The notes under the pieces: generated by a model
Told to the model about the DNA's origin: nothing
The model's database searches: none
Seen by the model: the letters and a program-made list of their open reading frames with translations, nothing else
Translations under genes and position numbers: made by a program
Part shown: positions 7,387 to 22,382 of the stretch, one piece after another
How the letters are laid out: the number at the start of each line of letters is the position of its first letter
Position numbering within the stretch: the first letter of the stretch is position 1
Source: Tsukamurella pulmonis
GTDB lineage: Bacteria; Actinomycetota; Actinomycetes; Mycobacteriales; Mycobacteriaceae
Reading direction: 5' to 3'
Assembly: GCF_900103175.1 (NCBI RefSeq)
Contig: NZ_FNLF01000002.1
Span: 1,788,136-1,812,135 of the forward strand
DNA length: 24,000 bases

Positions 7387-8742
7387 ATGACTGATGCGAG
7401 TGCGCCGGCGCCGGTGTCGTCGCGGGCGGAGACCCGCCGCGCGATCTGGAACACGCTGCGGGGTTCGAGTGGCAACCTCGTCGAGTGGTACGACGTCTAC
7501 GTCTACACCGTTTTCGCGACGTACTTCGAGAGCCAGTTCTTCGACAAGGCCGACAAGAACTCCACCGTGTACGTGTACGCGATCTTCGCGGTCACGTTCG
7601 TCATGCGGCCGGTCGGCTCCTGGTTCTTCGGCCGGTACGCCGACCGCAAGGGCCGCCGCGCCGCGCTGACCATGAGCGTCTCCCTCATGGCCGCATGCTC
7701 GTTCATCATCGCGATCGTGCCGGGGCGCGAGACCATCGGCATCGCCGCTGCGGTGATCCTCATCCTGTGCCGCCTGGTGCAGGGCTTCGCCACCGGCGGC
7801 GAGTACGGGACCTCGGCGACGTACATGTCGGAGGCCGCTACGCGGGAGCGGCGCGGCTTCTTCTCCTCCTTCCAGTACGTCACCCTCGTCGGCGGCCATG
7901 TGCTGGCGCAGTTCATGCTGCTCGTCCTGCTCGGACTGTTCTCCAAGGCCCAGGTCTCCGACTTCGGTTGGCGGATCGCCTTCTTCGTCGGCGGCATCGC
8001 GGCGATCATCGTCTTCTGGCTCCGCCGCACGATGGACGAGTCGCTCTCGGCGGAGCAGCTCGCCGCGATCCGCGACGGTGAGGACACCTCCTCCGGGACG
8101 ATGCGCGAACTGCTGACCGGCTACTGGCGATCGCTGCTGCTGTGCTTCCTCATCACGATGGGCGGCACGCTCGCGTTCTACGTCTACAGCGTCAACGCAC
8201 CCGCGATCGTCAAGACCGCGTACTCCGATCACGCGCTGACGGCGACCTGGGTCAACCTGATCGGCCTGATCTTCCTCATGCTGATCCAGCCGATCGGCGG
8301 TGCGATCAGCGACAAGATCGGCCGCAAGCCGATGCTCGTCTTCTTCGGTGTGGGCGGCGTCTGCTACACGTACTTCCTCATCACCTACCTGCCGACGCTG
8401 CACGTCGCGATCGCCTCGCTGGCGATGGTCTGCTTCGGCTACGTGATCATCACCGGCTACACGTCGATCAACGCCCTGGTGAAGGCCGAGCTGTTCCCCT
8501 CCCACGTCCGCGCCCTCGGCGTCGGGATCGGCTACGCGCTCGCCAACTCGATCTTCGGCGGCACGGCGCCGCTGATCTACGAGGCCGCGAAGAACTCCGG
8601 GCACGTACCGTGGTTCATCGCCTACGTCACCATCACCATCGGTATCTCGCTGTTCGTCTACATCTTCTTCCTGCACAACAAGTCCGAGACCTACCTCGAC
8701 CGGGAACGCGGCAGTGCGTTCGTCGCGGACGGGCGTCGTTGA
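7387..8742 (+). CDS. kgtP: MFS metabolite:H+ symporter (MHS family), alpha-ketoglutarate permease KgtP-like, 451 aa
   Basis: The N-terminus RRAIWNTLRGSSGNLVEWYDVYVYTVFATYFESQFF closely parallels E. coli KgtP (SSGNLVEWFDFYVYSF..., from memory). Motif A is GRYADRKGRR. The RBS GGAAGGG lies upstream of the ATG. Confidence 0.8.
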   Translation: MTDASAPAPVSSRAETRRAIWNTLRGSSGNLVEWYDVYVYTVFATYFESQFFDKADKNSTVYVYAIFAVTFVMRPVGSWFFGRYADRKGRRAALTMSVSLMAACSFIIAIVPGRETIGIAAAVILILCRLVQGFATGGEYGTSATYMSEAATRERRGFFSSFQYVTLVGGHVLAQFMLLVLLGLFSKAQVSDFGWRIAFFVGGIAAIIVFWLRRTMDESLSAEQLAAIRDGEDTSSGTMRELLTGYWRSLLLCFLITMGGTLAFYVYSVNAPAIVKTAYSDHALTATWVNLIGLIFLMLIQPIGGAISDKIGRKPMLVFFGVGGVCYTYFLITYLPTLHVAIASLAMVCFGYVIITGYTSINALVKAELFPSHVRALGVGIGYALANSIFGGTAPLIYEAAKNSGHVPWFIAYVTITIGISLFVYIFFLHNKSETYLDRERGSAFVADGRR

Positions 8743-8786
8743 CTCCGGCCTGCACTCGAGCGTGGCGAGCCCTCAGCCCAGATGAT

Positions 8787-8835
8787 GAAAAATTACACAG
8801 TTCCCGACACGGCGCGCCTATGGTGGTAATTTTTC
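8787..8835. promoter_or_regulatory. Perfect 10-bp inverted repeat GAAAAATTAC-N29-GTAATTTTTC upstream of the first DeoR gene (candidate operator or RNA stem)
   Basis: The arms are at 8787-8796 and 8826-8835, in the AT-rich 179-bp intergenic region at the left island border, about 90 bp upstream of the ATG at 8922. Confidence 0.3.
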
Positions 8836-8921
8836 TCGTACGTGCTGGAAATTATGCGCGGAAGTTCGCGCCCACCCCGAATCTCTGTGAGGAAATAACA
8901 TGGTGAGTGTGGAGGTGCCCC

Positions 8922-9695
8922 ATGGTGAGCGATGTCTCCAAGCGTCGGAACATGATTCGCGACCTTGCCCACGAAAAGGGTGAGGTCGCGTTCGCAGCAC
9001 TCGCTGCGCGTTTCGGGGTGTCGGCTATGACAGTGCGCCGCGATGTCGATGCACTTGAGGCTGAAGGACTGGTGCGCAAGGTCATGGGAGGTGCAATCGC
9101 GACCGGCAAGGTCGCCGAGCCCTCCTTCGAGTCCCGCGCCGCTGTGGAGTCCGCGGGGAAGCAACACATTGGCGAAACCGTGGCAGCACTCCTGTGTCCG
9201 AAGGAGACGGTGATCCTCGACAGCGGCAGCACCGTGCTGGCCGTCGCGCGAGCGATCCGCGGGAGGGGCCTAGGCCTGACGGTTCTAACTCCCAGCATTC
9301 TGGTCGCCGTCGAGCTTGCGGACGATCCCGGAACCACCGTGTTGCTGACCGGCGGGACGGTCAGGGCCGGTGAGCTCAGTCTGATCGGCGACGACGCCGC
9401 GGCGACGTTCGATCGTTACAACTGTGACACCTTCGTGATGGGGGTGTCCGGCGTGGACACCGACCGCGGGTACAGCGACTACCGCTCCGATGAGAGCGCG
9501 GTGAAGCGCGCCGCGATAGGTGCCGCGGACAGGCTCGTCGTCGTCGCAGACCACACGAAGCTCGACCGCGCACACCTAGCGCGAATAGCACCGTTCGAGG
9601 CGGCGGACCTGCTCGTTACTGATGCCGACGTGGGGGCAGAAGTCGTGAGAGTTGGGCGTGAGATGGGCGTCCACGTCGTCCTGGCGGAGCGGTGA
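8922..9695 (+). CDS. DeoR-family transcriptional regulator (SgcR-like), 257 aa
   Basis: The N-terminal HTH is RRNMIRDLAHEKGEVAFAALAARFGVSAMTVRRDVDALEAEGLVRKV. The C-terminal DeoR sugar-phosphate sensor domain shows ILDSGSTV and FVMGVSGV. The ATG at 8922 is preceded by GGAGG (8911-8915). Confidence 0.85.
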   Translation: MVSDVSKRRNMIRDLAHEKGEVAFAALAARFGVSAMTVRRDVDALEAEGLVRKVMGGAIATGKVAEPSFESRAAVESAGKQHIGETVAALLCPKETVILDSGSTVLAVARAIRGRGLGLTVLTPSILVAVELADDPGTTVLLTGGTVRAGELSLIGDDAAATFDRYNCDTFVMGVSGVDTDRGYSDYRSDESAVKRAAIGAADRLVVVADHTKLDRAHLARIAPFEAADLLVTDADVGAEVVRVGREMGVHVVLAER

Positions 9696-9767
9696 ATAAC
9701 TGACCGATTCGCAGTGGTATCGGAAATCCCCGCGCCCTATTCAGGCGCGCCGACGAAGGAGTCATCC

Positions 9768-10586
9768 ATGAACGACACCTGGCTCGATAACGTCTTCACA
9801 GTGAAGAAGCCTGTCATCGCTATGCTTCACCTGGCTGCCCTACCGGGAGATCCCGGGTACGACAGCGTCGCCGGCATCAGCGCCATCGTCGATCGTGCCA
9901 AGGGCGAACTCGAAGCCCTGCAGGAGGGCGGTGTTGACGGCGTGATGGTCTCCAACGAGTTCAGTCTGCCCTATCTCACCAAGACCGAGCCGATCACCGC
10001 GATCACAATGGCACGGATCATCACCGAGTTGCTCCCGGAGCTATCCGTACCACACGGCGTGAACGTCCTGTGGGACGGTCGCGCCTCCATCGACCTTGCT
10101 GTTGCTACCGGCGCGCAATGGGTTCGGGAGATCTTCACGGGTGTCTACGCGAGCGATTTCGGCTTGTGGAATACCAACGTCGGTGAGGTCGCTCGCTACC
10201 GGCACCGGATCGGAGCACACGATGTCAAGCTCCTTTTCAACATCGTCCCGGAGTCGGCAGCGTATGCCGCCGACCGGTCGTTGCAGTCGATCGCGCGGAG
10301 CACGGTGTTCGCGACCGCACCCGACGCGCTGTGCGTATCGGGGCTCACTGCCGGCTCCCCCACGGACACACAATCACTCACGACCGTCAAGGACGCTGCG
10401 GGTTCCGTGCCGGTGTTCGTCAACACAGGGGTCGAAGCGTCCAATGCCGCCGAGCAACTGGCTGTCGCCGACGGAGCTGTCGTCGGCACCGCGTTCAAGA
10501 AGGATGGCGAGTTCGCCAACAGGGTCGAGCTGGGTCGGGTACGTGAGCTCATGGGTGCGGTCCGGGACTTCAGGGCCACCGCCTGA
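9768..10586 (+). CDS. sgcQ: BtpA/SgcQ-family protein (TIM-barrel, function unknown), 272 aa
   Basis: KKPVIAMLHLAALPGDPGYD is typical of the BtpA family N-terminus. Length and context next to PTS/sgc genes fit. The ATG at 9768 is preceded by GAAGGAG. Confidence 0.75.
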   Translation: MNDTWLDNVFTVKKPVIAMLHLAALPGDPGYDSVAGISAIVDRAKGELEALQEGGVDGVMVSNEFSLPYLTKTEPITAITMARIITELLPELSVPHGVNVLWDGRASIDLAVATGAQWVREIFTGVYASDFGLWNTNVGEVARYRHRIGAHDVKLLFNIVPESAAYAADRSLQSIARSTVFATAPDALCVSGLTAGSPTDTQSLTTVKDAAGSVPVFVNTGVEASNAAEQLAVADGAVVGTAFKKDGEFANRVELGRVRELMGAVRDFRATA

Positions 10587-10643
10587 TTGTCCCTCGCCGG
10601 GTGCGCCTCTGCTCGAGTGGGGCGCGTCTGGAGATGGGACGTG

Positions 10644-11275
10644 TCAGCGCCAGGCCCGCACCAGAGCCACTGGGTCCGGTGCAGCGAGGAACGACCGGCC
10701 CAAGACCACATCGGTGAACCCGGCGCCGATGAGCTGCTCGCGGTGCTCGAGTGAGACTCCGCCGTCGGCGCATATCCCAATGTCAGTGGGAGATCCGCGA
10801 GGAAGGCCTTTCGAGCCGTGACCGCAGCAGGAAGAAAACCCTCAGAGCCACCGTCGGGCTCGCTGGTGAGCAGGCTGACCCCGTCGATCCATGGCGTCGA
10901 GAAGTCCAGGACGGGAGCCGGTGTGGAGGGATTGATCGCGAGTATCGCGCGCATACCCGCGCACCGGATCATGCGAGCGATCCGAGTCGGGTACCGAGTG
11001 GTCTCGGCGTGGAAGGTCACGGAGTGCGCACCAGCCTCCTTCAGAGGACCGATCAGGAACTCGGGTTGCTCCGCCATGAGGTGGACGTCGACGGGGAGCG
11101 ATGACCTCGCGGTGATCGCCGCAACTTGTCGCACGCTGCCGTTCAGGCTCGGGACGAAGTGTGCATCGCAGAAGTCCACGTGGAGACCGGACGCACCGGC
11201 GTTCGAGACTTGTTCCACCGCGCTGCCAAGGTCGAGGGGATCGGCCCGTTCGAGCGAGATCCACAGTCGAATCAC
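10644..11275 (-). pseudogene. sgcE: SgcE-like pentose-5-phosphate 3-epimerase, interrupted by a 1-nt frameshift
   Basis: The first ~162 codons, from GTG at 11275, show RPE-family motifs: GLHVDFCDAHFVP, VDVHLM and GVSLLTSEPDGG. The conserved C-terminus DIGICADGGVSLEHREQLIGAGFTDVVLGRSFLAAPDPVALVRAWR* is read in another frame and ends at TGA 10644-10646. The span is 632 nt, one short of a multiple of 3. The frame switch maps to the G3 run at 10788-10790. Confidence 0.7.
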
Positions 11276-11724
11276 CGGAGGGCACGACCAATCGCCGCTG
11301 TGATCGCCTCCACAGTGGCCTCTGAGAGTAGGTCCGACTCCTCCTGGGCCAGTCGCAGTAGTGATGTCAACGTACCTAGATGCTCATCAGGAGACACTGC
11401 GAGTGCGAAGACGAACCCGACGTCGACCGTGCGTCCGTCACTCGTGCCCATCTCGGCGAAGGCGACGGGTGGAGACAGTCGGGCGAAACCGATCGAACTG
11501 TGCAGGACTGCATCTCCGGCGGTTGCGTGGGGGACGGCGATCGCGACGGGCTCGGTCGCAAGGCCCGTGGGGTACTGGGTTTCACGGTCAAGCATCGCCT
11601 CCACGTAGTCAGGAGTCACCGTGCCGGCATCGTTCAGGACTGCTCCCACAGCGCGGATGACGGTCGCCGGGTCCTCCGCCGTGAAGTCCAGCAGGGTGTC
11701 GTGAGTGACCACTCGGAGCGTCAT
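11272..11724 (-). CDS. sgcA: PTS EIIA component, type-2 (Gat/Fru/Mtl-like; SgcA-like), 150 aa
   Basis: The size and the phospho-His motif VAIAVPHATAG fit PTS_EIIA_2. It has 4-nt overlaps with both neighbours (ATGA at 11721-11724 and GTGA at 11272-11275). Confidence 0.8.
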   Translation of the reverse strand: MTLRVVTHDTLLDFTAEDPATVIRAVGAVLNDAGTVTPDYVEAMLDRETQYPTGLATEPVAIAVPHATAGDAVLHSSIGFARLSPPVAFAEMGTSDGRTVDVGFVFALAVSPDEHLGTLTSLLRLAQEESDLLSEATVEAITAAIGRALR

Positions 11725-13109
11725 GCGTCTGCCTCCGCGGTTGCAGGGTCGGTGGTTGCGAGCTGTGCGCGTTCACGACGATGCCGGACAAAGCCTACGG
11801 CCGCTGCGGCGCTCAGGACGATGGCGAACATCAGACCCATCGCCCACGTGCCGCCGAGGCGGCCGAGCTGCGACGTCAGGTACGACACCCAATTGCCGGC
11901 GCTGAGCGCGGTGATGTAGGTGGCTCCCTGCGCCGACTCGGGCAGTGCGTAGCCGGCATCGGGCGCGGCGGCGGTGATCGAGGGTGCGAAGTAGGAGGCG
12001 ATCAGCAGGACGCCGGACATGATCACGATCCCCGCTATCAGCCCTCGGAATAGGTTGCCCCGCATCAATGGTGCACACATCGCTACGAAGAACGCCGTTG
12101 CCGCCAGGTCGCCGAAAGGAAGAGTGCTGTTCAACGGCAGAAACGCGGCGAGCAGCAAAGTGATCGGGACCATCAGGACGCCGAGGATCACAGTCGCGGG
12201 GTGTCCCACGAGGAGGGCCGAGTCGAGTCCGACGTAGGCCTCGCGACCCTTGAGCCTGCGCTGGAAGAAGACCTGTGCCTGTTCGGTGAGCGGGACGAGC
12301 GCCTCCATGAAGACCGAGATGACCTTGGGGAGGAAGTACATTACCGCTGCGAGGGTGATCCCCAGTTTCAACGCGGAAGAGACCTCCCCGGTTCCGATCG
12401 CGCCTATGACGATGCCGAGGATGCCGCCTATCGCAAACGGTTCCCCCGCTACGCCGAGCTTGTTCTGGAGCCGGTCGACGTCGAGGTTCACATCGCGCAG
12501 TCCGGGCGTACGGTCGAGGATCCATTGCAATCCGAGTACTACCGGTACCGAGGTGGTCGCCCACCCATGGGCGATCGAGACGCCGGGGAGCTGGAAGAAG
12601 CTCTGGACGCGTGAGGCGGTCGCGTCGGCGATCAGGAGTGAGAACACGGCGTGGGTCATCGACGCGAGCACTCCTGCCAGGTAGTTGTCGCCGGTGATCT
12701 TGAAAACGACTGCGCCGCTGAATGCGTAACACCAGAAGTTCCAGATGTCCAGGTTCAGCGTTTTCGTCATCCGCAGCAAGAGCATCACGACGTTCATGCA
12801 GAAGATGATCGGGATCGTCGTGGCGCCGACGGCGGTGCCCAGCGCGATCGCTGCCACTGCTCCGAATCCCACGTCGATCGCCTGCAAGTGGAGATCGAGC
12901 TTCGTCGCGAGTCCATCTGCGGCCGGAGCCAGGGACTCGATGAGCAGGTTCACGACGACACCGAGCATGACGAATCCGATGCCGAGCAGGACCCCGGCAC
13001 GAATCGCCTTGGGCCACTTGACCCCGAGTATGAGAGCTACGAGTGCGATGACGATCGGCAGGACGACCGCGTTGCCGAGGGAATCCCGGACGTATTCGAG
13101 CACGCTCAC
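11721..13109 (-). CDS. sgcC: PTS EIIC permease, galactitol (Gat) family (SgcC/GatC-like), 462 aa
   Basis: A highly hydrophobic polytopic protein of GatC-like size, placed between the IIB and IIA genes. The GTG start at 13109 overlaps the IIB stop (GTGA). Confidence 0.8.
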   Translation of the reverse strand: MSVLEYVRDSLGNAVVLPIVIALVALILGVKWPKAIRAGVLLGIGFVMLGVVVNLLIESLAPAADGLATKLDLHLQAIDVGFGAVAAIALGTAVGATTIPIIFCMNVVMLLLRMTKTLNLDIWNFWCYAFSGAVVFKITGDNYLAGVLASMTHAVFSLLIADATASRVQSFFQLPGVSIAHGWATTSVPVVLGLQWILDRTPGLRDVNLDVDRLQNKLGVAGEPFAIGGILGIVIGAIGTGEVSSALKLGITLAAVMYFLPKVISVFMEALVPLTEQAQVFFQRRLKGREAYVGLDSALLVGHPATVILGVLMVPITLLLAAFLPLNSTLPFGDLAATAFFVAMCAPLMRGNLFRGLIAGIVIMSGVLLIASYFAPSITAAAPDAGYALPESAQGATYITALSAGNWVSYLTSQLGRLGGTWAMGLMFAIVLSAAAAVGFVRHRRERAQLATTDPATAEADA

Positions 13110-13393
13110 GACTTTTCCCGCAGGATCGATTCCGCCGAATCGACGAGATCATCGGCTCCGATCCCGGTGAGCAGTGGCACCCCGGAGAGAACCGGCACGG
13201 GGAGACTGTCGGGAGCTGCGGCGGTCGAGACCACGAGGGAGACGCCGGCGAGATTGGCAGTGATGTCCTGCACGCGGCACTGCTTCGTCTGGACGGCGAG
13301 GCCTCGTTCCTTCAACCGCGCTGTCAGCGCGGTGGCGACGTGCGTGGAGGTCGCGACTCCGGTGCCGCAGGCTACGAGGATGGTCTGGGACAT
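13106..13393 (-). CDS. sgcB: PTS EIIB component (Gat family; SgcB-like), 95 aa
   Basis: The N-terminus MSQTILVACGTGVATS carries the phospho-Cys motif of PTS_IIB (lactose/galactitol type). The size is about 95 aa. Confidence 0.8.
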   Translation of the reverse strand: MSQTILVACGTGVATSTHVATALTARLKERGLAVQTKQCRVQDITANLAGVSLVVSTAAAPDSLPVPVLSGVPLLTGIGADDLVDSAESILREKS

Positions 13394-13401
13394 GGGAGCT
13401 C

Positions 13402-14478
13402 CTACCAGGTGAGGGTCGAGGTGTCGAGGGAGTGCGCCAGGGACTCAAGGATGTCCGTGCAACCGATGAGGTCGTCCATTCGGATCTGTTCGACGGAGCT
13501 GTGCGTGTAGCGACACGGAATTCCGATCCCGACGGTCGCCACGCCCTCCGCGGTCGACATCGGTACGAAGGCTGCGTCGGTGATGAGTCCGATGATCGTT
13601 TCGAGCTGAAGTGGGGTCCCGGTGTCGGTCGCGGCGGTCTCGACGGCGTCAGCCAGACCCTGGTGTGGGATGAGGCCGCCCAGTGTGCCGCGGCCGTGGA
13701 AGGAGAGCCGGTTCAGGACGGGACCGGCGCCGAGGGCGACGTTACCCGTGCCATCGAGGTCGGGAGTGTCAGTAGCAGGTGACACATCCACGTTCACCAC
13801 CGCCGCGGGGTGGTGGTGTGCCACGAGAGAGAGTGTGCCCCGAACGTGGAACTCTTCCTGTGTGGTGAATCCCAAGATGACGGGTCGTTCTGGAGGGGCT
13901 GCGGCCAGTCGCTCAGCCAACTCGCAGAGGGAGGCGACGCCCGATCGGTCGTCGAGGGCGGGGGAGACGACACCTCCGTTGGGAAGCTCTGTGAAACATC
14001 TTTCCGTGCAGGCCATGTCGCCTACGCGGGCGCCGATGTGCAGCGCCTCGGACCGGGTTCGTGCGCCGATGTCGAGATAGAGATCCTCGGCTGGGTGCGC
14101 GACGTACTTCTCGGTCTCCGGTGTCAGGTGGTGCGCGAGACTGCCGACTACGGCAGGGATCGGGCCGTGCCGAGTGAGTACATTGAACCGCGAACCGGGT
14201 AGGAGACGTTCGGGAACACCGCCGACGCGGCGGATCCGGAGGAAGCCGTCCTCCTCTACTCGGTGCACGACCAGTGCCACCTCATCGAGGTGCGCGGTGA
14301 TGAGAGTGGGTTCGCCGGTGCCGGTGCCGATCACGACGGACAACTGACCGGTCCGATCCTGACGCGCGTCGAGTCCTAGGGATTGCAGGTGCTTGCGAAC
14401 GTGACCGACGACGGCGTGCTCGTATCCCGGCGGGCCCGAGAGTGCACACAGGCTGCGGAGGTGTTCGGCGAGGCTCAT
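13402..14478 (-). CDS. sgcX: M42-family metallopeptidase / putative glycosidase-like protein (SgcX/FrvX-like), 358 aa
   Basis: M42 motifs are present: ITAHLDEV, ALDDRSGVA and TTQEEFHVRG (metal ligands His/Asp/Glu-Glu). The ATG at 14478 overlaps the upstream DeoR stop (ATGA). Confidence 0.8.
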   Translation of the reverse strand: MSLAEHLRSLCALSGPPGYEHAVVGHVRKHLQSLGLDARQDRTGQLSVVIGTGTGEPTLITAHLDEVALVVHRVEEDGFLRIRRVGGVPERLLPGSRFNVLTRHGPIPAVVGSLAHHLTPETEKYVAHPAEDLYLDIGARTRSEALHIGARVGDMACTERCFTELPNGGVVSPALDDRSGVASLCELAERLAAAPPERPVILGFTTQEEFHVRGTLSLVAHHHPAAVVNVDVSPATDTPDLDGTGNVALGAGPVLNRLSFHGRGTLGGLIPHQGLADAVETAATDTGTPLQLETIIGLITDAAFVPMSTAEGVATVGIGIPCRYTHSSVEQIRMDDLIGCTDILESLAHSLDTSTLTW

Positions 14479-15239
14479 GCGTGGAGTACTCCTATCCCTT
14501 CATCGACCAGGGCGCGCACAGGCTCTGACCTCGGATCCGCGTCAGTGATGACAAGATCGATGGCGCGAGGTTCCAGTACACGCACTGCTGCGTCGGATCC
14601 GTCGAGTTTCGTTGTGTCGGCGAGGATGATCCGTCGGCGCGCGGCGGTGGCCGCGGCCTGTTTCACCCGGGTCTCATCGATCCCGTAGTCGGAGGCGCCG
14701 CCCGCTGCGGTGATACGCGCGACACCGAGGAACGCCGTGTCGAAGCGGAACTCGCGGAGTCGGTCGACAGCATCAGGCCCGACGACCGTCAGTTCCTCGG
14801 AGCGCACGCGACCACCGATCATTTCGACCCAGATCGTCGTGCAGCCCGCGACGATGCTTGCCGCGGTGAGATTCGGTGTGATCATCGTCCCGCGCAGTGG
14901 CCGGTCGGCGATTGCCGAAGCGAGTGCGATCGCAGTGGTGCCTGAGTCCACGTAGAAGGTGTCACCATCGGCGATCTGATCACGTGCGGCCATGCCAATC
15001 GCACGCTTGGCCAGGTCGTTCCGCACCATTCGGTCCGCGAACGGGGGCTCGAAAAGTCCGCCCGTGTACACCGCTCCGTGCCGGACGCGGCGGACGTCGC
15101 CGTGCCTCTCGAGCGCCTCGATGTCGCGTCGTGCGGTCATCGAGGAGATCCCGTACTCCCGTGCGATCGAGTCGAAGGTCAGTTCGCCACGGATTCGCAA
15201 CTGGTCACGAATCTTGTCCAGGCGATCGGCTCGGTCCAT
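14475..15239 (-). CDS. DeoR-family transcriptional regulator (second copy; first gene of the minus-strand operon), 254 aa
   Basis: The HTH is LTFDSIAREYGISSMTARRDIEALERHGDVRRV and the sensor domain shows YVDSGTTA and AFLGVARI. The start was chosen at ATG 15239 (MDRADRL...). The 21 upstream codons from the TTG at 15302 are unsupported. There is no SD sequence, so the transcript may be leaderless. Confidence 0.8.
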   Translation of the reverse strand: MDRADRLDKIRDQLRIRGELTFDSIAREYGISSMTARRDIEALERHGDVRRVRHGAVYTGGLFEPPFADRMVRNDLAKRAIGMAARDQIADGDTFYVDSGTTAIALASAIADRPLRGTMITPNLTAASIVAGCTTIWVEMIGGRVRSEELTVVGPDAVDRLREFRFDTAFLGVARITAAGGASDYGIDETRVKQAAATAARRRIILADTTKLDGSDAAVRVLEPRAIDLVITDADPRSEPVRALVDEGIGVLHA

Positions 15240-15246
15240 GTGACGA

Positions 15247-15267
15247 ACGTTACACCTCACGCGTGAG
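15247..15267 (-). promoter_or_regulatory. Candidate core promoter/operator of the sgc-type operon: -10-like TAACGT plus a 12-bp perfect palindrome CTCACGCGTGAG
   Basis: On the minus strand, TAACGT (15252-15247) ends 7 nt before the DeoR ATG. The perfect palindrome at 15256-15267 sits immediately upstream, inside the expected -35/-10 spacer. Confidence 0.3.
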
Positions 15268-15484
15268 TCAGTCACAAAAAGATAAGGATCAGTGTTCCTC
15301 AATCTCAGACGTGCGCATCACCGTGCGTAGGGGAGTCGCTCCGTGCTGGGGTGTCGCCGCACTCGAACAGGCGCGGTCCGACCCGGCGGGGCGTTCACCG
15401 AACGCGGCGTCGACCATGGGATTCGCGTCTATCGGTCGCGACGATGAGGAGCGCCCAGATGTCAGTGACGCGGGCAGCCATCAC

Positions 15485-16237
15485 TCAGCGCCAGCGGGCG
15501 AGCAGTTCGTTCGATCGTTCCGTGAGTGCCATCTGCCAGATCGGGCCGAAGCTGATCCGGCCCGCGCCGGCGGCGGCGAGAGCGGCCAGATCGTCGCTCG
15601 CGGGGTTCGCGATCGCGTTCACAGGGAGCGGCAGGGCGTCCGCGAGGTGGCGGAGCGTGGCCGCGTCGTGGAACGCGACCGGGTACAGCGAGTCGGCGCC
15701 CGCGTCGGCGCACAGCTGCATCCGCGCGATGGCCCGCTCTACGCGATCCTCCGCCTCACCCACCTGGTTCTTGAAGATGTCCGTACGGGCATTGATCACC
15801 ACGTGCACGCCCGCGGCGTCGGCGGCGGCGCGCAGCGCGGCGACCAGGTCGGCGTGCTCCTGCGCGTCGCGGAACCGACCGCCCTCGGAGTGCACGGTGT
15901 CCTCGATGTTCAGGCCCACCGCGCCGGCGCCCAGCAGACCCTCGATGAGCCGCTCCGCGGGCCGGCCGTAGCCGGACTCGATGTCGACGGACACGGGCAC
16001 GTCGACGGCGGCGGTGATCTGCGCGACGCGGGTCATCGCCTCGTCGAAGGTCATGCCCTCGCCGTCGGGCCGGCCGATCGAATCTGCCATCGGATGCGAT
16101 CCGACGGTGAGCGCCGCGAAGCCCGCGGCGACCGCGGTACGGGCCGACCACGCGTCCCACGTGGTCGGCAGGACGACGGGATCGCCCTTGCGGTGCAGGG
16201 ACTTCAGGGTGGTGGCCAGATCGGCGAGCGATGTCAT
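15485..16237 (-). CDS. Isocitrate lyase / PEP mutase superfamily protein (2-methylisocitrate-lyase-like), 250 aa
   Basis: Motifs present: VVLPTTWDAWSA, VSVDIESGYG, GLNIEDT and VINARTD. Only the last 250 codons of the 932-aa track ORF are supported. An in-frame ATG at 16255 is an alternative start. Confidence 0.8.
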   Translation of the reverse strand: MTSLADLATTLKSLHRKGDPVVLPTTWDAWSARTAVAAGFAALTVGSHPMADSIGRPDGEGMTFDEAMTRVAQITAAVDVPVSVDIESGYGRPAERLIEGLLGAGAVGLNIEDTVHSEGGRFRDAQEHADLVAALRAAADAAGVHVVINARTDIFKNQVGEAEDRVERAIARMQLCADAGADSLYPVAFHDAATLRHLADALPLPVNAIANPASDDLAALAAAGAGRISFGPIWQMALTERSNELLARWR

Positions 16238-16330
16238 GACACCAGTCTGGTGCATCCGCGCGGCGTGCGCACCGCTTCGGGTCGGACCGTCGTGCCTCCC
16301 GCGAAGGACCTGCCTGGATAGGGTGATTCG

Positions 16331-18322
16331 ATGTTGGACACACAGCCGGGTCCGCTGCGGCCCGTCGAACTCGCCCACGCCGCCGTCACCGCCGCACTGA
16401 TGTCCGCCATCGCGGTGCTCTCCATGGTTGTCCCGGGCGCCGTCGCCTTCGCCTGGGCCGGCGCGGTTCCCATGGGCGTACTCGCCTTCCACCACCGCGC
16501 CAGGGTCGCGCTCGCGACCGCGATCGCCGCGGGCACGGTCTCCTTCCTCCTGGCGGGGTTCGGCGGCCTGGTCTCGGCGTGGACGTGCGTCTACATGGGC
16601 GTGATCTGCGGTCAGGTGCGCCGCCGCGAGCGGGGCCGCGGCACGATGCTCGCCGTCGCCGCGGTGTGGGGTGTCGTCGTCTCCTCGGCGGTGTTCGCCT
16701 TCCTCGCGGTGTTCGCCGACTTGCGCACCGTGGTGCTCGGCGCGTTCGCGGCGAACGTGCACGGGCTGGGCGCGGTGCTCGAGCCGGTGCCGGGGCTCTC
16801 CGGTGCCGGCGCGGCGCTGCACCGGCTCGCCGACTTCGGGCTCGAACGGTGGCAGGCCTTCGTGCTGGTGTCCGTCTGGTTGATCGTCGTCATCGGGTGC
16901 TCCTTCGCGTGGCGGATCCTCACCCCGGTACTGCGCCGGGTACGGGCCACGAGCGCGGCGCCGCGCGACCTGTTCACCCCCGAGGACGGCACGGAACCGC
17001 CCGGCCCGCTGCCGATGACGCTGCGGGGCGTCGACTTCCGCTATCCGGGTGCCGACCACGACACCCTCGCCGGCGTCTCGTTCACGGTGCGGGCGGGCGA
17101 TCACGTCGCGGTGACCGGTGCCAACGGCACCGGCAAGTCGACGCTCATGCGGGTGCTCGCCGGGCTCGCGCCGACGGGCGGCACCGTCGAACGACGCGGG
17201 GCGGTGGGCCTCGGCCGGGTCGGCGGGACGGCCCTCGTGCTGCAGCACGCCGACAGTCAGGTGCTCGGAATCCGGGTCGCCGACGACGTCGTGTGGGGAC
17301 TGCCCGAGGAGACCGAGGTGGACGTCGACGGCCTGCTCGCCGAGGTCGGTCTCGCCGGCATGGGGGACCGGGACACGTCGGGGCTCTCCGGCGGCGAGGC
17401 CCAGCGTCTCGCGGTGGCCGCGGCACTGGCCCGGCGGCCGGCCCTCGTCGTCGCCGACGAGGTGACGACGATGGTGGACCGCGACGGGCGGGGCGATCTG
17501 ATGGGCCTGCTGGGCGGCCTGACCCGCCACCACGACCTCGGCCTGGTCAACATCACGCACTACCCGGAGGAGGCGGACGGGGCGGACCGCACCGTCGACC
17601 TGGGGGAGGCGCAACGCGCTTCCGTGCCGCTGCCGGAGTCCGCGCCGGGCCGTCGCGCGCCGCTCGGCGGCGTGGTGCTCGCGGTGCGCGGCGTGCGCTA
17701 CGAGTACGACGCCGGCACCCCATGGCGCCGAGAGGCCCTGCGCGGCGTGGACTTCGAGGTGCGGGAGGGCGAGGCGGTCCTGCTGTGCGGCGGCAACGGT
17801 TCGGGCAAGTCGACGCTCGCCTGGGTGATGGCGGGGCTGCTGGCGCCCACGGCCGGCACCTGCGAGCTCGACGGTGCGCCGGTCGCGGACCACGTCGGAG
17901 CGGTCGCGCTCGCGCTGCAGGCTGCGCGCCTGCAGCTGATGCGGGGCACCGCCGGGGACGCCCTCGCAGCGCTCGCGGGCTACCGCAGTGACGACGACGG
18001 GGCCATCGGGCGGGCGCTCGCCGCGGTGGGGCTGCCCGCGAAAACGGCGGGCCTGCTGGTGGATCGGCTCAGCGGCGGCCAGCTCCGCCGGGTCGCGCTC
18101 GCGGGCCTGCTCGCCCGCGCGCCGCGCCTGCTGATCCTCGACGAGCCGCTCGCGGGGCTCGATCTGCCCTCCCAGCGGGAGCTGATCGAGCTGCTGATCG
18201 GCATCCGGGACCGCGGTCAGGCGCTGGTGATCATCTCGCACGACGTCGATCATCTCGATCGGTTGTGGGACAGGACGATCCACCTCGCCGGTGGGCGGAT
18301 CGAGACCGAGGAGGCGGCGTGA
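16331..18322 (+). CDS. ECF-type ABC transporter fusion protein: N-terminal membrane domain plus two ATPase domains (EcfA-EcfA'-like), 663 aa
   Basis: Residues 1 to ~205 are hydrophobic, with about 5-6 TM segments by eye. Two NBDs follow. Walker A: GANGTGKST and GGNGSGKST. Signature: LSGGEAQRL and LSGGQLRRV. Walker B: LVVADE and LLILDE. H-loop: ITHY and ISHD. The architecture resembles M. tuberculosis Rv2326c (from memory). Confidence 0.85.
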   Translation: MLDTQPGPLRPVELAHAAVTAALMSAIAVLSMVVPGAVAFAWAGAVPMGVLAFHHRARVALATAIAAGTVSFLLAGFGGLVSAWTCVYMGVICGQVRRRERGRGTMLAVAAVWGVVVSSAVFAFLAVFADLRTVVLGAFAANVHGLGAVLEPVPGLSGAGAALHRLADFGLERWQAFVLVSVWLIVVIGCSFAWRILTPVLRRVRATSAAPRDLFTPEDGTEPPGPLPMTLRGVDFRYPGADHDTLAGVSFTVRAGDHVAVTGANGTGKSTLMRVLAGLAPTGGTVERRGAVGLGRVGGTALVLQHADSQVLGIRVADDVVWGLPEETEVDVDGLLAEVGLAGMGDRDTSGLSGGEAQRLAVAAALARRPALVVADEVTTMVDRDGRGDLMGLLGGLTRHHDLGLVNITHYPEEADGADRTVDLGEAQRASVPLPESAPGRRAPLGGVVLAVRGVRYEYDAGTPWRREALRGVDFEVREGEAVLLCGGNGSGKSTLAWVMAGLLAPTAGTCELDGAPVADHVGAVALALQAARLQLMRGTAGDALAALAGYRSDDDGAIGRALAAVGLPAKTAGLLVDRLSGGQLRRVALAGLLARAPRLLILDEPLAGLDLPSQRELIELLIGIRDRGQALVIISHDVDHLDRLWDRTIHLAGGRIETEEAA

Positions 18323-19089
18323 GCAGATCGACCTCCCTCGTCCTGCGGCCGTTGCCGCAGCGGTCCTACCTGCACGAGCTGTGGGCCGGGACCAAGCTGC
18401 TCGCCGTGGCCGCGCTGTCCGTGGTGCTCACCGTCGCGCCGAGCTGGCCGGTGGTGGGGCTCTTCGCCGTGCTCCTGGTGCTCGCCGCCGCGGCCGCGCG
18501 GATCCCGCTGTCCGTCGTGCCGGGCGTGCCCCGCTGGGTCCTCGTGGTCACCGCGATCGGCGGTGGCCTGATGGTGGCCAGCGGTGGGGCGCCGTTCGTG
18601 CACCTGGGCGCGGTGTCGCTGGGCCTCGGCGGGCTCTCGAACCTGCTGCGCATCGTGTTGCTGGGGTTGGTGCTGCTCGGCGCGGGCGCGCTGATCGCGT
18701 GGACCACCGACCCCGCGGATGTGGCACCCGCCGTCGCCCGGCTGATGCGGCCGCTGCGCCCGCTGCGCGTTCCGGTGGACGAGTGGGCGGTCACGCTGGC
18801 TCTCGCCCTGCGTACGTTCCCGCTGATGCTCGACGAGTTCCGCACGCTGGCCGCGGCGCGGAGGTTGCAGCCGCCGCCCCCGGTGCAGCGCTCACGCCGG
18901 GCCGATCTGGTGGACCTGTGCGTCGCCGCGATGGTGGTGGCCCTGCGCCGTGCCACCGAGATGGGCGAGGCGATCGCCGCGCGCGGCGGGACGGGCCGAC
19001 TCGTCGCCCGCACACAGGGGCCGGGCCGTCGCGACGCGGTCGCCGCCGCCTTGGTGGGCGCGGCCTGCGTTCTCGCCCTGGCCCTCTGA
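18319..19089 (+). CDS. ecfT: Energy-coupling factor transporter transmembrane subunit EcfT/CbiQ family, 256 aa
   Basis: A polytopic membrane protein with the CbiQ-like region VARLMRPLRPLRVPVDEWAVTLALALRTFP. The GTG at 18319 is preceded by GAGGAG and overlaps the upstream stop (GTGA). Confidence 0.8.
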   Translation: MSRSTSLVLRPLPQRSYLHELWAGTKLLAVAALSVVLTVAPSWPVVGLFAVLLVLAAAAARIPLSVVPGVPRWVLVVTAIGGGLMVASGGAPFVHLGAVSLGLGGLSNLLRIVLLGLVLLGAGALIAWTTDPADVAPAVARLMRPLRPLRVPVDEWAVTLALALRTFPLMLDEFRTLAAARRLQPPPPVQRSRRADLVDLCVAAMVVALRRATEMGEAIAARGGTGRLVARTQGPGRRDAVAAALVGAACVLALAL

Positions 19090-19138: not shown

Positions 19139-19528
19139 TCAGTCGACCGCGACCAGCGGGTAGACGCCGTTCTCGTCGTGCACCTCGGTGCCGACGACGG
19201 GCGGGTTGAACACGCACAGCATGCGCATCCGGGTCCTCGTGGTCACCGTGTGCCGCTCGTGGCCGTCGAGCAGGTACATCGTGCCGGGGGCCAGCGGGTA
19301 CTCGACGCCGGTCTCCCGGTCGAGCAGGGTGCCCTCGCCCTCCACGAGCCACACGGCCTCCACGTGGTTGGCGTAGTGGAACTCGTTGACGGTGCCGGGC
19401 TCGATCACGGTCTCGTGGAACGAGAAGCCGACCCTGTCGCCGCCGAGGACGATGCGCTTGCTGCGCCAGTGGCCCGCGGCGACGTCGCGCTCGGTGCCGG
19501 TGATCTCGTCGGTGGTACGAACGATCAT
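19139..19528 (-). CDS. ectC: L-ectoine synthase EctC, 129 aa
   Basis: A cupin protein, [16 protein letters not shown]...WRSKRIVL...[10 protein letters not shown]....HY.NHVEAVW..EGEG, typical of EctC. The ATG overlaps the ectB stop (ATGA at 19525-19528). Only the last 129 codons of the 365-aa track ORF are supported. Confidence 0.9.
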
Positions 19529-20823
19529 GCGGACAGAACCTTTCGGGTCGCGGTGGCCAGGATGTCCAGGCCGAGGTCGAGTTCGGAGTCGGTGATGGTC
19601 AGCGGCGGCAGCAGCTTGACCACCTCGTCGGAGGGGCCGGAGGTCTCCGCGAGCAGGCCCTGCTCGTAAGCGGCGCCGCAGACCTCGCCGGCCTTGTCGG
19701 CGTCGGTGAAGACCAGGCCCTGCACCATGCCGCGGCCGCGGTGGCTCAGCTGCTCCGGGAACTCGGCGCACAGCTCCTCGAAGCGCTTCTCGATGTGAGC
19801 GCCCTTGCGGAGCGTCTCCTTCTCGAACGTGTCGTCCGACCAGAACTCGTCGATCGCGTGCTTGGCGGTGACGAAGGCGGGGTTGTTGCCGCGGAAGGTG
19901 CCGTTGTGCTCGCCCGGGCCCCAGACGTCCAGCTCCGGCTTCATCAGCGTCAGTGCCATCGGCAGGCCGTATCCGCCGATCGACTTGGACAGCGTCACGA
20001 TGTCGGGCGTGATGCCGGCGGCCTCGAACGAGAAGAACGGACCGGTACGGCCGCAGCCCATCTGGACGTCGTCGACGATGAGCAGCATGTCGTGGCGCTC
20101 GCACAGCTCGGAGAGCGCGCGCAGCCACTCGGGGCGCGCGACGTTGACGCCGCCCTCGCCCTGCACGGTCTCGACGATGACGCCCGCGGGCTTGTTGAGG
20201 CCACTGCCGGAGTCGGCGAGCACGGCCTCGAACCACTGGAAGTCGGGCGCGACGCCGTCGAAGTAGTTGTCGAAGGGCATCGGCGTGGCGTGCACCAGCG
20301 GGATGCCGGCGCCGCCGCGCTTCATCGAGTTACCGGTCACCGACAGCGCACCCAGGGTCATGCCGTGGAAGGCGTTGGTGAAGTTGATGATCGACTCGCG
20401 ACCCTTCACCTTGCGGGCCAGCTTCAGCGCGGCCTCGACGGTGTTGGTGCCCGTCGGGCCGGGGAACTGCACCTTGTAGTCCAGACCGCGGGGCCGCAGG
20501 ATCTTGTCCTCGAAGGTCTGCAGGAACTCGCCCTTGGCAACGGTGGACATGTCCAGCGAGTGGGTGATGTGCCCCTCGGAGATGTAGTCCACCAGAGCCT
20601 GCTTGAGCTTGGGGTGGTTGTGCCCGTAGTTGAGGGCACCGGCGCCGGCGAAGAAGTCGAGGTAGCGGCGGCCGTCGCGGTCGATGAGCCATGAGCCCTC
20701 GGCCCGATCGAACACCGCGGGCCAGCCGCGCGAGTAGCTGCGCACCTGCGACTCGCGGGTGCTGAAGATCGAGGGCTGCTCGAAATCTGCAGTGCTGGTG
20801 TGATCGTCGGTCACGGTTGCCAT
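19525..20823 (-). CDS. ectB: Diaminobutyrate--2-oxoglutarate transaminase EctB, 432 aa
   Basis: A class-III aminotransferase with [13 protein letters not shown]-type N-terminus (here [16 protein letters not shown]), [11 protein letters not shown], and the PLP-Lys motif [10 protein letters not shown]. The ATG at 20823 is preceded by AGGAGG. Confidence 0.9.
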
Positions 20824-20860
20824 GGTGATCCTCCTAGTGGGCCGTGCAGCGCCCCGCGCA

Positions 20861-21391
20861 TCAGGCGGGGTCGATGGTGTACAGCTGCTCGGGATCGTGT
20901 GGTTCGGAATCAATGGGGGAGATGTGGTGCGAGGCGAAGAGGTCGCTCACCGCGAGGGTGGAGCCGCGCTTCTTCGCCACTGCGCCGAAGAGCTGTTGGG
21001 ACGCTGTGTTGTCCGCGGTGATCGTGGTCTCCAGGCGGGTAACGCCCTCCACCGCAAGACGGTCCAACAGATCGATGAGCATGCGGGATGCGATGCCGTG
21101 GCCGCGATGCGCGGCGTCCACAGCGACCTGCCACACGAACAGGGTGTCCGGGCGGTCGGGTCGGCGGTAGCCCGTGACGAATCCGGCCACGGCACCGTCG
21201 CGTTCGGCGACGATCGACGAGGCGGCGAAGTCACGGCACAACAAGGTGTACGCATACGTCGAGTTGAGATCGAGAACCTCGGTATCGCGGGCGATTTCCC
21301 AGAGCCGAATCCCGTCGTCGATAGACGGGCGGCGAGTGGAAACCCCCGCTTCCGCGGTGGTGGTGGGATCGCTCTTGTGAGACGGGCTCAT
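20861..21391 (-). CDS. ectA: L-2,4-diaminobutyrate acetyltransferase EctA (GNAT), about 176 aa
   Basis: A GNAT core (VWQVAVDAAHRGHGIASRML) with the EctA-like N-terminal region LDLNSTYAYTLLCRDF. It lies upstream of ectB-ectC. The start is uncertain: ATG at 21391 or TTG at 21409. Confidence 0.85.
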   Translation of the reverse strand: MSPSHKSDPTTTAEAGVSTRRPSIDDGIRLWEIARDTEVLDLNSTYAYTLLCRDFAASSIVAERDGAVAGFVTGYRRPDRPDTLFVWQVAVDAAHRGHGIASRMLIDLLDRLAVEGVTRLETTITADNTASQQLFGAVAKKRGSTLAVSDLFASHHISPIDSEPHDPEQLYTIDPA

Positions 21392-21500: not shown

Positions 21501-22382
21501 TCACGGCCGCGACGCAGCGGTCCGCGCCAGCGAACCGGCCTCCAGGGCCGCCCACAGCGCACCGTCGGGGCCGAGCGCGATGCCGTGCGGCTCCGACGCC
21601 GCTCGGGGAAGCTCGTACCTGCGGATTCGCCCCTCGGGGTCGATCGAGCCGAGGGCGTTCCCGGCCCACTCGGTGAACCACATCCGCTCGTCCGCGCCCG
21701 CGCAGATGCCGTGCGGGCGGGCCGCGGGGTCGGCGAGGGGGAAGTGCGTCACGGCACCGTCGGCCGTGATCCGGCCGATGCGTCCGGCGCCGATCTCCGC
21801 GAACCACAGCGCGCCGTCGGGGCCCGCGGCGATCCCGACCGGTGCGCTCCCCGCGTCGAGGCCGAACGTCGTGACCGCCCCGTCGAGGGTGATCCGGCCG
21901 ATCGCGTCGGCCTGGTTGAGGGTGAACCAGAGCGCGTCGTCGGGGCCGGCGGCGATCGCGGAGGGGAAGGCTCCGGGGACCGGCAGGTCGAACTCGGTGA
22001 GATCGCCCGCGGGCGTGAGTCGCCCGATGCGGTCGGTCGCGGTCGCGGTGAACCACAGGGCGCCGTCCGCGCCGGTGGCGATGCCGAACGGGCCGGGGCC
22101 GACGTCCGCGGGGAGGTCGATGTGGGAGACCTCGCCGGAGACGGTGATCCGTCCGAGGCGGTGCGCGCGGTACTCGGTGAACCAGAGCGCGCCGTCGGGG
22201 CCGGTCGTGATGATCGTGGGACCGGACTCGGGGCCCACGGGGTGCAGCACGGTCGTGCCGGTGGCGGGGTCGTGCCTGCCGATCTCGCCGCTCCCGACCA
22301 GCGTGAACCACAGTCCGCCGTCGGGGCCGGCGGTCAGTGCGTACGGCCCGGCACCGGGTACCTCGTGGAGCGTGATCGTCAT
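21501..22382 (-). CDS. vgb: Virginiamycin (streptogramin) B lyase Vgb family, seven-bladed beta-propeller, 293 aa
   Basis: Seven repeats of about 42 aa are centred on GPDGALWFTE-like motifs. The residue environments recalled from S. aureus Vgb are conserved: GPYALT (Tyr), ARPHGI (His) and SEPHGI (Glu-x-His). The ATG overlaps the ribokinase stop (ATGA at 22379-22382). Confidence 0.85.
   Translation of the reverse strand: MTITLHEVPGAGPYALTAGPDGGLWFTLVGSGEIGRHDPATGTTVLHPVGPESGPTIITTGPDGALWFTEYRAHRLGRITVSGEVSHIDLPADVGPGPFGIATGADGALWFTATATDRIGRLTPAGDLTEFDLPVPGAFPSAIAAGPDDALWFTLNQADAIGRITLDGAVTTFGLDAGSAPVGIAAGPDGALWFAEIGAGRIGRITADGAVTHFPLADPAARPHGICAGADERMWFTEWAGNALGSIDPEGRIRRYELPRAASEPHGIALGPDGALWAALEAGSLARTAASRP

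Follow-up and report, generated by a model that had tools for sequence, protein, structure and literature searches.

A 24,000-nucleotide stretch of Tsukamurella pulmonis DNA (the window) contains, at positions 8743–15484, eight genes that resemble the sgc operon of Escherichia coli. That operon unites seven families: a DeoR regulator, an RPE-family epimerase, the phosphotransferase system (PTS) components EIIA, EIIB and Gat-family EIIC, the BtpA/SgcQ protein and an M42 metallohydrolase. We interpret the segment as an acquired, mosaic sgc-type catabolic island that is organized in two units and whose pathway is probably impaired in the sequenced strain, and we estimate the probability of this reading at about 0.75. 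Genes were assigned to families with Pfam and NCBIfam profiles and compared with the sgcXBCQAER genes of E. coli K-12 (b4300–b4305 and b4565), the sequence of which was fetched for comparison. Every family expected for an sgc locus was matched, in agreement with the gene content given in the initial annotation; the same annotation called the locus full, which is true of the set of families but not of their integrity, as sgcE is frameshifted in this sequence. The island and its two flanking genes are listed below, together with guanine-plus-cytosine (GC) content and its value at third codon positions (GC3) where relevant.

7387–8742, plus strand: left flank, KgtP-like gene for a major facilitator superfamily (MFS) metabolite/H+ symporter (Pfam Sugar_tr/MFS_1); GC3 0.94.
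8743–15484: the island, 6742 bp flanked by the stop codons of two host genes that converge on it.
8743–8921, plus strand: intergenic region upstream of deoR1, 56% GC, presumed promoter/operator.
8922–9695, plus strand: deoR1, DeoR/GlpR-family regulator of 257 aa (HTH_DeoR and DeoRC).
9768–10586, plus strand: sgcQ, BtpA/SgcQ-family phosphate-binding TIM-barrel protein of 272 aa (PF03437, 277 bits; TIGR00259, 292 bits against a cut-off of 153).
10587–10643: hairpin, by folding energy, in the 57-bp spacer between the convergent units.
10644–11275, minus strand: sgcE, RPE-family epimerase gene (PF00834), disrupted by a 1-bp deletion at 10787.
11272–11724, minus strand: sgcA-like PTS EIIA (PTS_EIIA_2) of 150 aa (PF00359, 69 bits).
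11721–13109, minus strand: sgcC-like PTS EIIC of the Gat family, 462 aa (PF03611, 231 bits; TIGR00827, 405 bits against a cut-off of 542).
13106–13393, minus strand: sgcB-like PTS EIIB of 95 aa (PF02302).
13402–14478, minus strand: sgcX-like M42 dinuclear metallohydrolase of 358 aa (PF05343, 217 bits).
14475–15239, minus strand: deoR2, DeoR/GlpR-family regulator of 254 aa at the head of the PTS operon (HTH_DeoR and DeoRC).
15256–15267: perfect palindrome CTCACGCGTGAG, candidate operator, 17 nt upstream of the deoR2 ATG.
15485–16237, minus strand: right flank, phosphoenolpyruvate (PEP)-mutase/isocitrate-lyase-family gene (PF13714, 218 bits); GC3 0.91.

The genes form two convergent units, deoR1-sgcQ on the plus strand (unit A) and deoR2-sgcX-sgcB-sgcC-sgcA-sgcE on the minus strand (unit B). 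Within unit B, four of the five gene junctions are 4-nt overlaps and the fifth is a gap of 8 nt, a spacing so tight that it indicates a single operon; EIIA, EIIB and EIIC are three separate polypeptides encoded by adjacent genes. The presence of two DeoR paralogs and of a separate deoR–sgcQ unit, both anticipated from the first inspection of the sequence, is borne out by the 39% identity of DeoR1 to DeoR2 and by the convergence of unit A on the PTS operon.

Horizontal acquisition of the island is well supported by the sequence comparisons, as judged from three observations: nine congeners lack it at this junction, one of them having an empty site; GC3 deviates; and there is a gap among the homologs of EIIC. 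The EIIC and SgcQ proteins match T. pulmonis entries of NCBI at 100% identity, which confirms the high-GC actinobacterial host that had been proposed. To compare relatives, ±10-kb loci were fetched around the PEP-mutase flank gene, with one genome per species; the matches listed comprise nine other Tsukamurella species and one Jongsikchunia, T. pulmonis itself not being among them. The PEP-mutase gene is kept at 75–96% identity in these loci, and none of them contains a homolog of an island protein. DNA synteny with the nine congeners ends exactly at 15485, at the PEP-mutase stop codon, and restarts at about 8722–8749, around the MFS stop codon at 8742; identities in congeners are 86–93% for the MFS gene and 90–96% for the PEP-mutase gene. 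In T. spumae, the two flank genes lie 112 bp apart and thus define an empty site. Among the Tsukamurella species examined here, the island is found only in T. pulmonis. The initial annotation had suggested inspecting this junction in relatives and had placed the island at 8780–15320 between a KgtP-like transporter gene and a PEP-mutase-family gene; the inspection shows absence in the nine congeners listed rather than ancestral presence, Pfam bears out both flank genes, and the congener synteny retains the island while widening its edges slightly to 8743–15484.

The composition of the island deviates in the same interval. Mean GC of 60-nt lines is 0.644 in the island (range 0.47–0.77, n = 112) versus 0.717 in the flanks (0.52–0.88, n = 286), a gap of about 7 points (Mann–Whitney p = 4e-23); the two whole flanks have values of 0.712 and 0.722. 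Sliding-window GC is 0.60–0.68 over approximately 8500–15500 and 0.70–0.77 across most of the remaining window. The drop itself had been recognized from spot counts, but the figures then quoted (48–67% inside and 78–82% outside) represent the low tail of the island and the high tail of the flanks. GC3 is 0.72–0.81 in the eight island genes and 0.91–0.98 in 12 of 14 flank genes (p = 1.6e-4), the two exceptions being ectA (0.81) and a GH3 gene (0.88). Raw GC starts to sag at about 7400, within the left-flank MFS gene, which has low GC at the first and second codon positions and a GC3 of 0.94. Because the sag begins before the true edge, GC3 is a better edge marker than raw GC.

A search of 5.8 billion clustered proteins placed the next-best EIIC relative outside T. 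pulmonis at 61% identity and returned no EIIC homolog between 61% and 100%. An ancestral locus that was retained in T. pulmonis and lost from the other Tsukamurella species would be compatible with the variability of the junction in all species, where the MFS gene and a neighboring transporter gene pair come and go, and with the lack of a mobility gene, tRNA or flanking repeat marking an insertion. Such differential loss would require nine or more independent, precise losses, and it is at odds with the clean 112-bp site in T. spumae, with a GC3 that lies 15–20 points under the flanks in all eight island genes and with the finding that no other Tsukamurella protein is among the top homologs of EIIC (to 44% identity) or SgcQ (to 74%). 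We therefore consider it very improbable, and favor acquisition.

As stated in the initial annotation, no mobility genes accompany the locus: Pfam analysis of all window genes revealed no integrase, transposase or other mobility gene in the 24 kb, a tRNA scan of the window found none, and flanking direct repeats occur at chance level only, none being convincing. A classical integrase-mediated island was rejected on these grounds. The same gap between the flank genes is occupied by 1.3–3.8 kb of other DNA in T. hominis, T. pseudospumae and Tsukamurella sp. NPDC003166. Where genes could be called in such cargo, GC3 is 0.84–0.94 (T. hominis, NPDC003166 and the gap of T. asaccharolytica, which also lacks the MFS gene). 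The differing cargo at one gap identifies the junction as a variable spot. Examples of the cargo in congeners are a TetR regulator and paralogous genes with no known function.

The left-flank MFS gene is absent from the loci of a T. paurometabola metagenome-assembled genome, T. asaccharolytica and T. soli, which suggests that the whole junction is recombination-prone. Directly adjoining the island is a second presence/absence segment, an energy-coupling factor (ECF)-type transporter pair at 16331–19089 on the plus strand, in which DUF2232 is fused to two ABC ATPase domains and followed by CbiQ. T. hominis, T. pseudospumae, Tsukamurella sp. 1534 and PLM1 have this pair, whereas T. spumae, T. 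asaccharolytica and T. soli are among the species that lack it.

Sequence relationships within the island indicate that it is a mosaic, with the sgcQ–deoR1 pair drawn from a kinase-type lineage of SgcQ. The PTS genes have their closest relatives on two uncultured contigs, L084 (63% GC, EIIC 61% identical) and L095 (50% GC, EIIC 59%), each with all seven families in one operon of the order R-B-C-A-E-Q-X. Identities between these clusters and the window are 55% for EIIB, 42–45% for M42 and 58–62% for SgcQ. They share the seven families with the island, and L084 has a similar GC content; in contrast to the island, they have a different gene order, SgcQ inside the operon and one regulator. The SgcQ proteins of PTS-type loci are only 57–63% identical to the window copy. 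Its relatives at 74–86% come from Amycolatopsis, Saccharopolyspora, Microbacterium, Mycolicibacterium and others, with 86% identity to contigs L089/L090 and 83% to Amycolatopsis silviterrae. DeoR1 is 73% identical to the DeoR of L089/L090, and the deoR1–sgcQ DNA is alignable over 1.7 kb.

Among the relatives whose neighborhoods were read, these SgcQ genes lie in loci of the type DeoR-SgcQ-FGGY kinase-M29 peptidase with a divergent MFS gene (and an SDR gene in L091), or in an ABC-transporter variant without the M29 peptidase. DeoR1 and SgcQ share orthology (73%/86%), order and orientation with such loci, as exemplified by A. silviterrae and L089/L090. Unlike them, the window has neither an FGGY kinase nor an M29 peptidase, nor the divergent MFS or SDR gene, so that only the DeoR–SgcQ part is orthologous; the PTS and M42 genes fill the corresponding functional positions. 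In a neighbor-joining tree of 80+ SgcQ proteins, the window copy is nested in the kinase-type actinobacterial clade, and the PTS-linked copies, including that of E. coli, lie elsewhere.

Unit B is ordered X-B-C-(Q)-A-E as in E. coli, except that the slot of Q is closed and the EIIC and EIIA genes overlap by 4 nt at this point. The simplest reading of these sequences is that a PTS-type operon without sgcQ was joined to the deoR–sgcQ pair of a kinase-type locus. Because both units share the lowered GC3, the joining probably happened in a donor of approximately 63–65% GC. A DhaK protein encoded next to L084 is 77–78% identical to proteins of Brachybacterium, Dermabacter and Actinomyces and 73–75% identical to proteins of Clostridia (Agathobaculum, Pseudoflavonifractor, Hydrogenoanaerobacterium, Oscillospiraceae and Lachnospiraceae), which provides a weak hint at an actinobacterial source of the PTS module.

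To place this arrangement in a wider context, we scored 80 metagenomic SgcQ loci (L097–L176) by tblastn and counted neighbors in the 44 loci of at least 8 kb, a sample that is biased towards relatives of the query alignment; other SgcQ neighbors were identified by Pfam. The counts were as follows.

FGGY kinase near SgcQ: 34 of 44 loci.
M29 or M42 (either) near SgcQ: 30 of 44.
DeoR near SgcQ: 26 of 44.
M29 near SgcQ: 21 of 44.
Dak1/Dak2 near SgcQ: 14 of 44.
M42 near SgcQ: 10 of 44.
PTS EIIC near SgcQ: 4 of 44.

SgcQ is thus almost always found beside a phosphorylating step and usually beside a dinuclear metallohydrolase, the PTS version being in the minority. These counts point to a phosphorylated substrate and a metallohydrolase step as the conserved logic of SgcQ loci. 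In many bacteria (L089/L090, L091, L092 and the 44 metagenome loci), SgcQ, an M29 peptidase and an FGGY kinase occur with ribose-type ABC or MFS transporters, often accompanied by Dak1/Dak2, a DeoC-family aldolase and polyol-type dehydrogenases. Such loci appear to represent an uncharacterized pathway that is much commoner than the PTS version.

The separate regulators, the opposite orientation and the clearly differing phylogenetic affinity of the two units could also mean that they are unrelated, with deoR1–sgcQ a stranded remnant of a kinase-type locus that became the neighbor of a Gat-family PTS operon by chance; unit A indeed lacks the kinase and peptidase of its closest relatives. Yet unit A supplies precisely the sgc gene that is missing from unit B, and the 4-nt overlap of EIIC and EIIA occupies the position of sgcQ in E. 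coli. Both M42 and RPE genes (and in no case an M29 gene) accompany SgcQ in all four metagenomic loci that have a PTS, which ties Q to the B-C-A-E-X set. The same lowered GC3 in both units further suggests that they arrived together. A chance association of the units is accordingly rather improbable, and we retain the view of a single, composite island.

The T. pulmonis island shares with E. coli sgc its seven families and the core order X-B-C-A-E, as well as an accessory, horizontally mobile character and an unknown substrate. The E. coli locus lies in the KpLE2 cryptic-prophage island and occurs in only 31–59% of phylogroup A, D and B2 genomes. According to a transcriptome atlas paper of July 2026, the sgc substrate 'remains to be established', so that the earlier statement that it has never been established still applies (PMC13343008). 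In contrast to E. coli, T. pulmonis has two regulators instead of one, with a regulator at the head rather than the tail of the operon, and its genes are arranged in two convergent units and not in one co-directional operon. sgcQ is located outside the PTS operon, in the convergent unit, and has another phylogenetic origin; sgcE is frameshifted and there is no prophage context. Protein identities range from 21% to 58%: 58% for SgcQ, 43% for EIIC, 38% for EIIB, 32% for M42/SgcX, 31% for the RPE-family protein and 21–26% for the DeoR proteins against SgcR.

SgcQ-family genes are also found on 200 plasmid records, mostly Rhizobium megaplasmids; none of the encoded proteins is more than 60% identical to the window SgcQ and none is actinobacterial. 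Together with the accessory status of sgc in E. coli, their presence on plasmids suggests that mobility is normal for this gene set. On a 119-kb Salmonella enterica plasmid (NZ_CP110932.1), sgcC and sgcQ are annotated at 63733–65782.

With the E. coli gatYZABCDR operon, the island has in common the separate Gat-family EIIA, EIIB and EIIC polypeptides and a DeoR-family repressor, and galactitol models are the best NCBIfam matches for all three PTS proteins. A galactitol- or pentitol-type operon in place of an sgc-type one would therefore be conceivable from the transporter, the more so as EIIC is 37–43% identical to GatC and hence near the 43% to SgcC. However, every Gat model scores under its cut-off (405 versus 542 bits for EIIC with TIGR00827). 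The island contains no polyol-phosphate dehydrogenase (GatD), tagatose-bisphosphate aldolase (GatYZ) or kinase; in their stead, it has the sgc-specific partners SgcQ, SgcE and SgcX and keeps the order X-B-C-A-E. We consider a gat-like operon quite improbable. An L-ascorbate (ula/sga) system was rejected because no enzyme gene has a Ula-specific NCBIfam match, the only similarity being a weak one to UlaR (66–75 bits versus a 244-bit cut-off). Since the defining enzymes of both systems are absent, the island is not a gat or ula system. We conclude that it represents a new actinobacterial sgc-type locus with a rearranged, hybrid architecture, of a known but uncharacterized kind.

The sgcE gene is broken in the window. 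Its alignment to the Pfam profile runs only to position 150 of 198, and the C-terminal segment, ...DIGICADGGVSLEH..., lies in another frame. A Logan contig from a near-identical isolate, the source of SRR11462861 (L001; four differences in 21.4 kb), reads CCCC at 10787, where the window has CCC, and encodes an intact 210-aa SgcE. The in-frame product lacks the Asp of the xDGG motif, which in RPE enzymes binds the metal and, paired with one other residue, serves in acid/base catalysis. The 1-bp deletion at 10787 thus removes the catalytic, metal-binding Asp along with the C-terminal eighth of the barrel. Programmed frameshifting was rejected: with one more C, the near-identical isolate has an ordinary open frame. 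Across the site, a second Logan assembly, independent of the window, agrees with it at 100% identity. None of three NCBI assemblies lists an SgcE protein, and in two of these, the protein accession following that of EIIA is already that of SgcQ. A sequencing error is accordingly an unlikely cause, although all these assemblies may derive from one strain, the three of NCBI perhaps being the type strain sequenced three times. Since the independent assembly agrees at the site and L001 is intact, the lesion is real in this strain line and not fixed in the species. With the catalytic Asp lost, the pathway is probably impaired in the sequenced strain, unless the housekeeping Rpe substitutes.

Should the whole island be a decaying, non-functional relic that is not under selection in T. 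pulmonis, the loss of the catalytic Asp and the missing SgcE of the NCBI assemblies would be expected. The island accounts for three of the four positions at which the window and L001 differ (8940, K7E in DeoR1; 10787, the sgcE frameshift; 14182, silent in sgcX), a number too small for a statistical test, and E. coli sgc deletion mutants showed no growth defect on the carbon sources tried (PMC13343008). Speaking against decay of the island are the seven of eight genes that are intact, with conserved active-site residues, and the isolate that retains sgcE; if the NCBI assemblies stem from one type strain, the deletion may have occurred once and recently, perhaps in culture. A relic therefore appears unlikely, though it carries some weight, and we describe the island as a catabolic locus with one lesion.

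Several properties of the encoded proteins bear on their function. On alignment with the solved TET1/PH0519 peptidase, the M42 protein retains the catalytic Glu and all five metal-ligand positions. An AlphaFold (AF2) model of SgcQ features a confident TIM barrel (pLDDT, the predicted local distance difference test, 81; pTM, the predicted template-modeling score, 0.85). The nearest solved folds are the phosphate-binding barrels TrpA, HisF, OMP decarboxylase (OMPDC), PcrB and RPE, at template-modeling scores of 0.5–0.6 and 12–17% identity; structure searches with SgcQ found no BtpA-family structure. About 100 SgcQ columns are invariant from Tsukamurella to E. coli, many of them polar, a pattern that would be expected of an enzyme. 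A literature search on SgcQ/BtpA function found nothing useful.

From these features, we propose the following pathway. The Gat-family enzyme II would import and phosphorylate a sugar- or polyol-like compound, drawing on the enzyme I (EI) and HPr of the host. SgcQ, as a phosphate-binding TIM barrel, and SgcX, as a metallohydrolase with an intact active site, would then convert the phosphorylated product, and SgcE would epimerize a ketose phosphate into the pentose-phosphate pathway, towards xylulose-5-phosphate. The two DeoR repressors would release their units once a phosphorylated intermediate appears. The genes for EI (ptsI) and HPr (ptsH) are not within the 24-kb window, to which the search was confined, and the literature on Tsukamurella PTS yielded nothing useful. 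For E. coli sgc, a pentitol has been put forward as substrate; the recurrent M42 or M29 partner makes an amine- or aminoacyl-linked sugar worth considering beside it. The keto-sugar or pentose-derived substrate surmised in the initial annotation is likewise a conjecture.

The neighborhoods also allow a bolder, speculative and rather doubtful extension, in which SgcQ is the fixed core of a widespread pathway and the other steps are interchangeable. For phosphorylation, such a pathway may rely on a Gat-family PTS or else on a transporter combined with an FGGY or Dak kinase, and the dinuclear 'aminopeptidase' (M42 or M29) may be a true pathway enzyme. Instead of a plain pentitol, the substrate may be a sugar bearing an amino-acid, peptide or other amine-linked group, of which a glycated amino acid is one example. 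If this is true, the island would be a natural chimera of a kinase-type SgcQ with a PTS-type front end, and SgcQ with its metallohydrolase would be the key pair for the 30-year-old sgc question.

The regulatory signals of the two units are less distinct. The spacer hairpin at 10587–10643 has a folding energy of −41.5 kcal/mol (z = −4.2) on the plus strand and −29.5 kcal/mol (z = −2.6) on the minus strand, and is likely a two-way terminator, as predicted from folding. A scan with a sigma-70-type consensus, which is not informative for actinobacteria, gave no promoter match. The palindrome CTCACGCGTGAG occurs once in the window, 22 of 100 shuffles matched it within one mismatch, and the 8-mer CTCACGCG is also found upstream of the L084 deoR; we regard it as a weak candidate operator. 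The 254-aa length of DeoR2 matches both the L001 gene call and the NCBI protein.

Several points weigh against our interpretation of an acquired sgc-type mosaic. Tsukamurella species beyond the matches listed may exist unsampled, and the flanks of the window were the only reference for composition. The SgcQ tree is a neighbor-joining tree without support values, labeled by neighborhood. The intact RPE-family protein of the L001 allele scores 122 bits against the Rpe cut-off of 212.6 and 96 against the SgcE cut-off of 376; like all three PTS proteins, it falls below every curated NCBIfam equivalog cut-off. EIIC does not appear clearly closer to SgcC (43%, 311 bits) than to GatC (approximately 256 bits), SgcC and GatC being 46% identical to each other. 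As EIIC is about equidistant from the two, the label 'sgc-type', which the initial annotation had already applied to the PTS, stands for gene content and not for orthology of the PTS proteins. Finally, PTS function in the host is assumed, and what we propose for substrate class and expression is predicted from sequence.

Elsewhere in the window, a second GC dip coincides with the ectABC ectoine-synthesis operon at 19139–21391 on the minus strand (acetyltransferase, class III aminotransferase and ectoine synthase). Raw GC is 0.65–0.69 here, and GC3 is 0.94–0.98 in ectB and ectC and 0.81 in ectA. The dip is mostly due to amino-acid composition; given their host-like GC3, the sag over the MFS and ectABC genes reflects that composition and not foreign origin. 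At 21501–22382 on the minus strand lies a gene for a member of the virginiamycin B lyase (Vgb) family of streptogramin-B resistance enzymes (PF24684, 406 bits), the propeller blades of which produce staggered self-similarity in BLAST comparisons with congeners. Long antisense or out-of-frame open reading frames, for example of 932 and 1023 aa (15485–18283 on the minus strand and others), are high-GC artifacts; in the 932-aa frame, only the C-terminal 250 codons correspond to a real gene, that of the PEP-mutase family.

The orphan status of the sgc operon dates back to the first reading of the E. coli genome, and the T. pulmonis locus does not solve the question of its substrate. What it reveals is that the sgc gene set, which moves between phyla as a unit, can also be rebuilt, here from the parts of two lineages. 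Such rebuilding suggests that SgcQ works with the PTS, M42 and RPE genes and is not merely adjacent to them. T. pulmonis further provides a natural pair of near-identical strains with intact and broken sgcE. For this opportunistic pathogen, the locus adds a further species-specific metabolic island at a recombination-prone junction. While the acquisition of a sugar-use island is ordinary, its mosaic structure and the neighborhood pattern of SgcQ offer handles on an old orphan operon.

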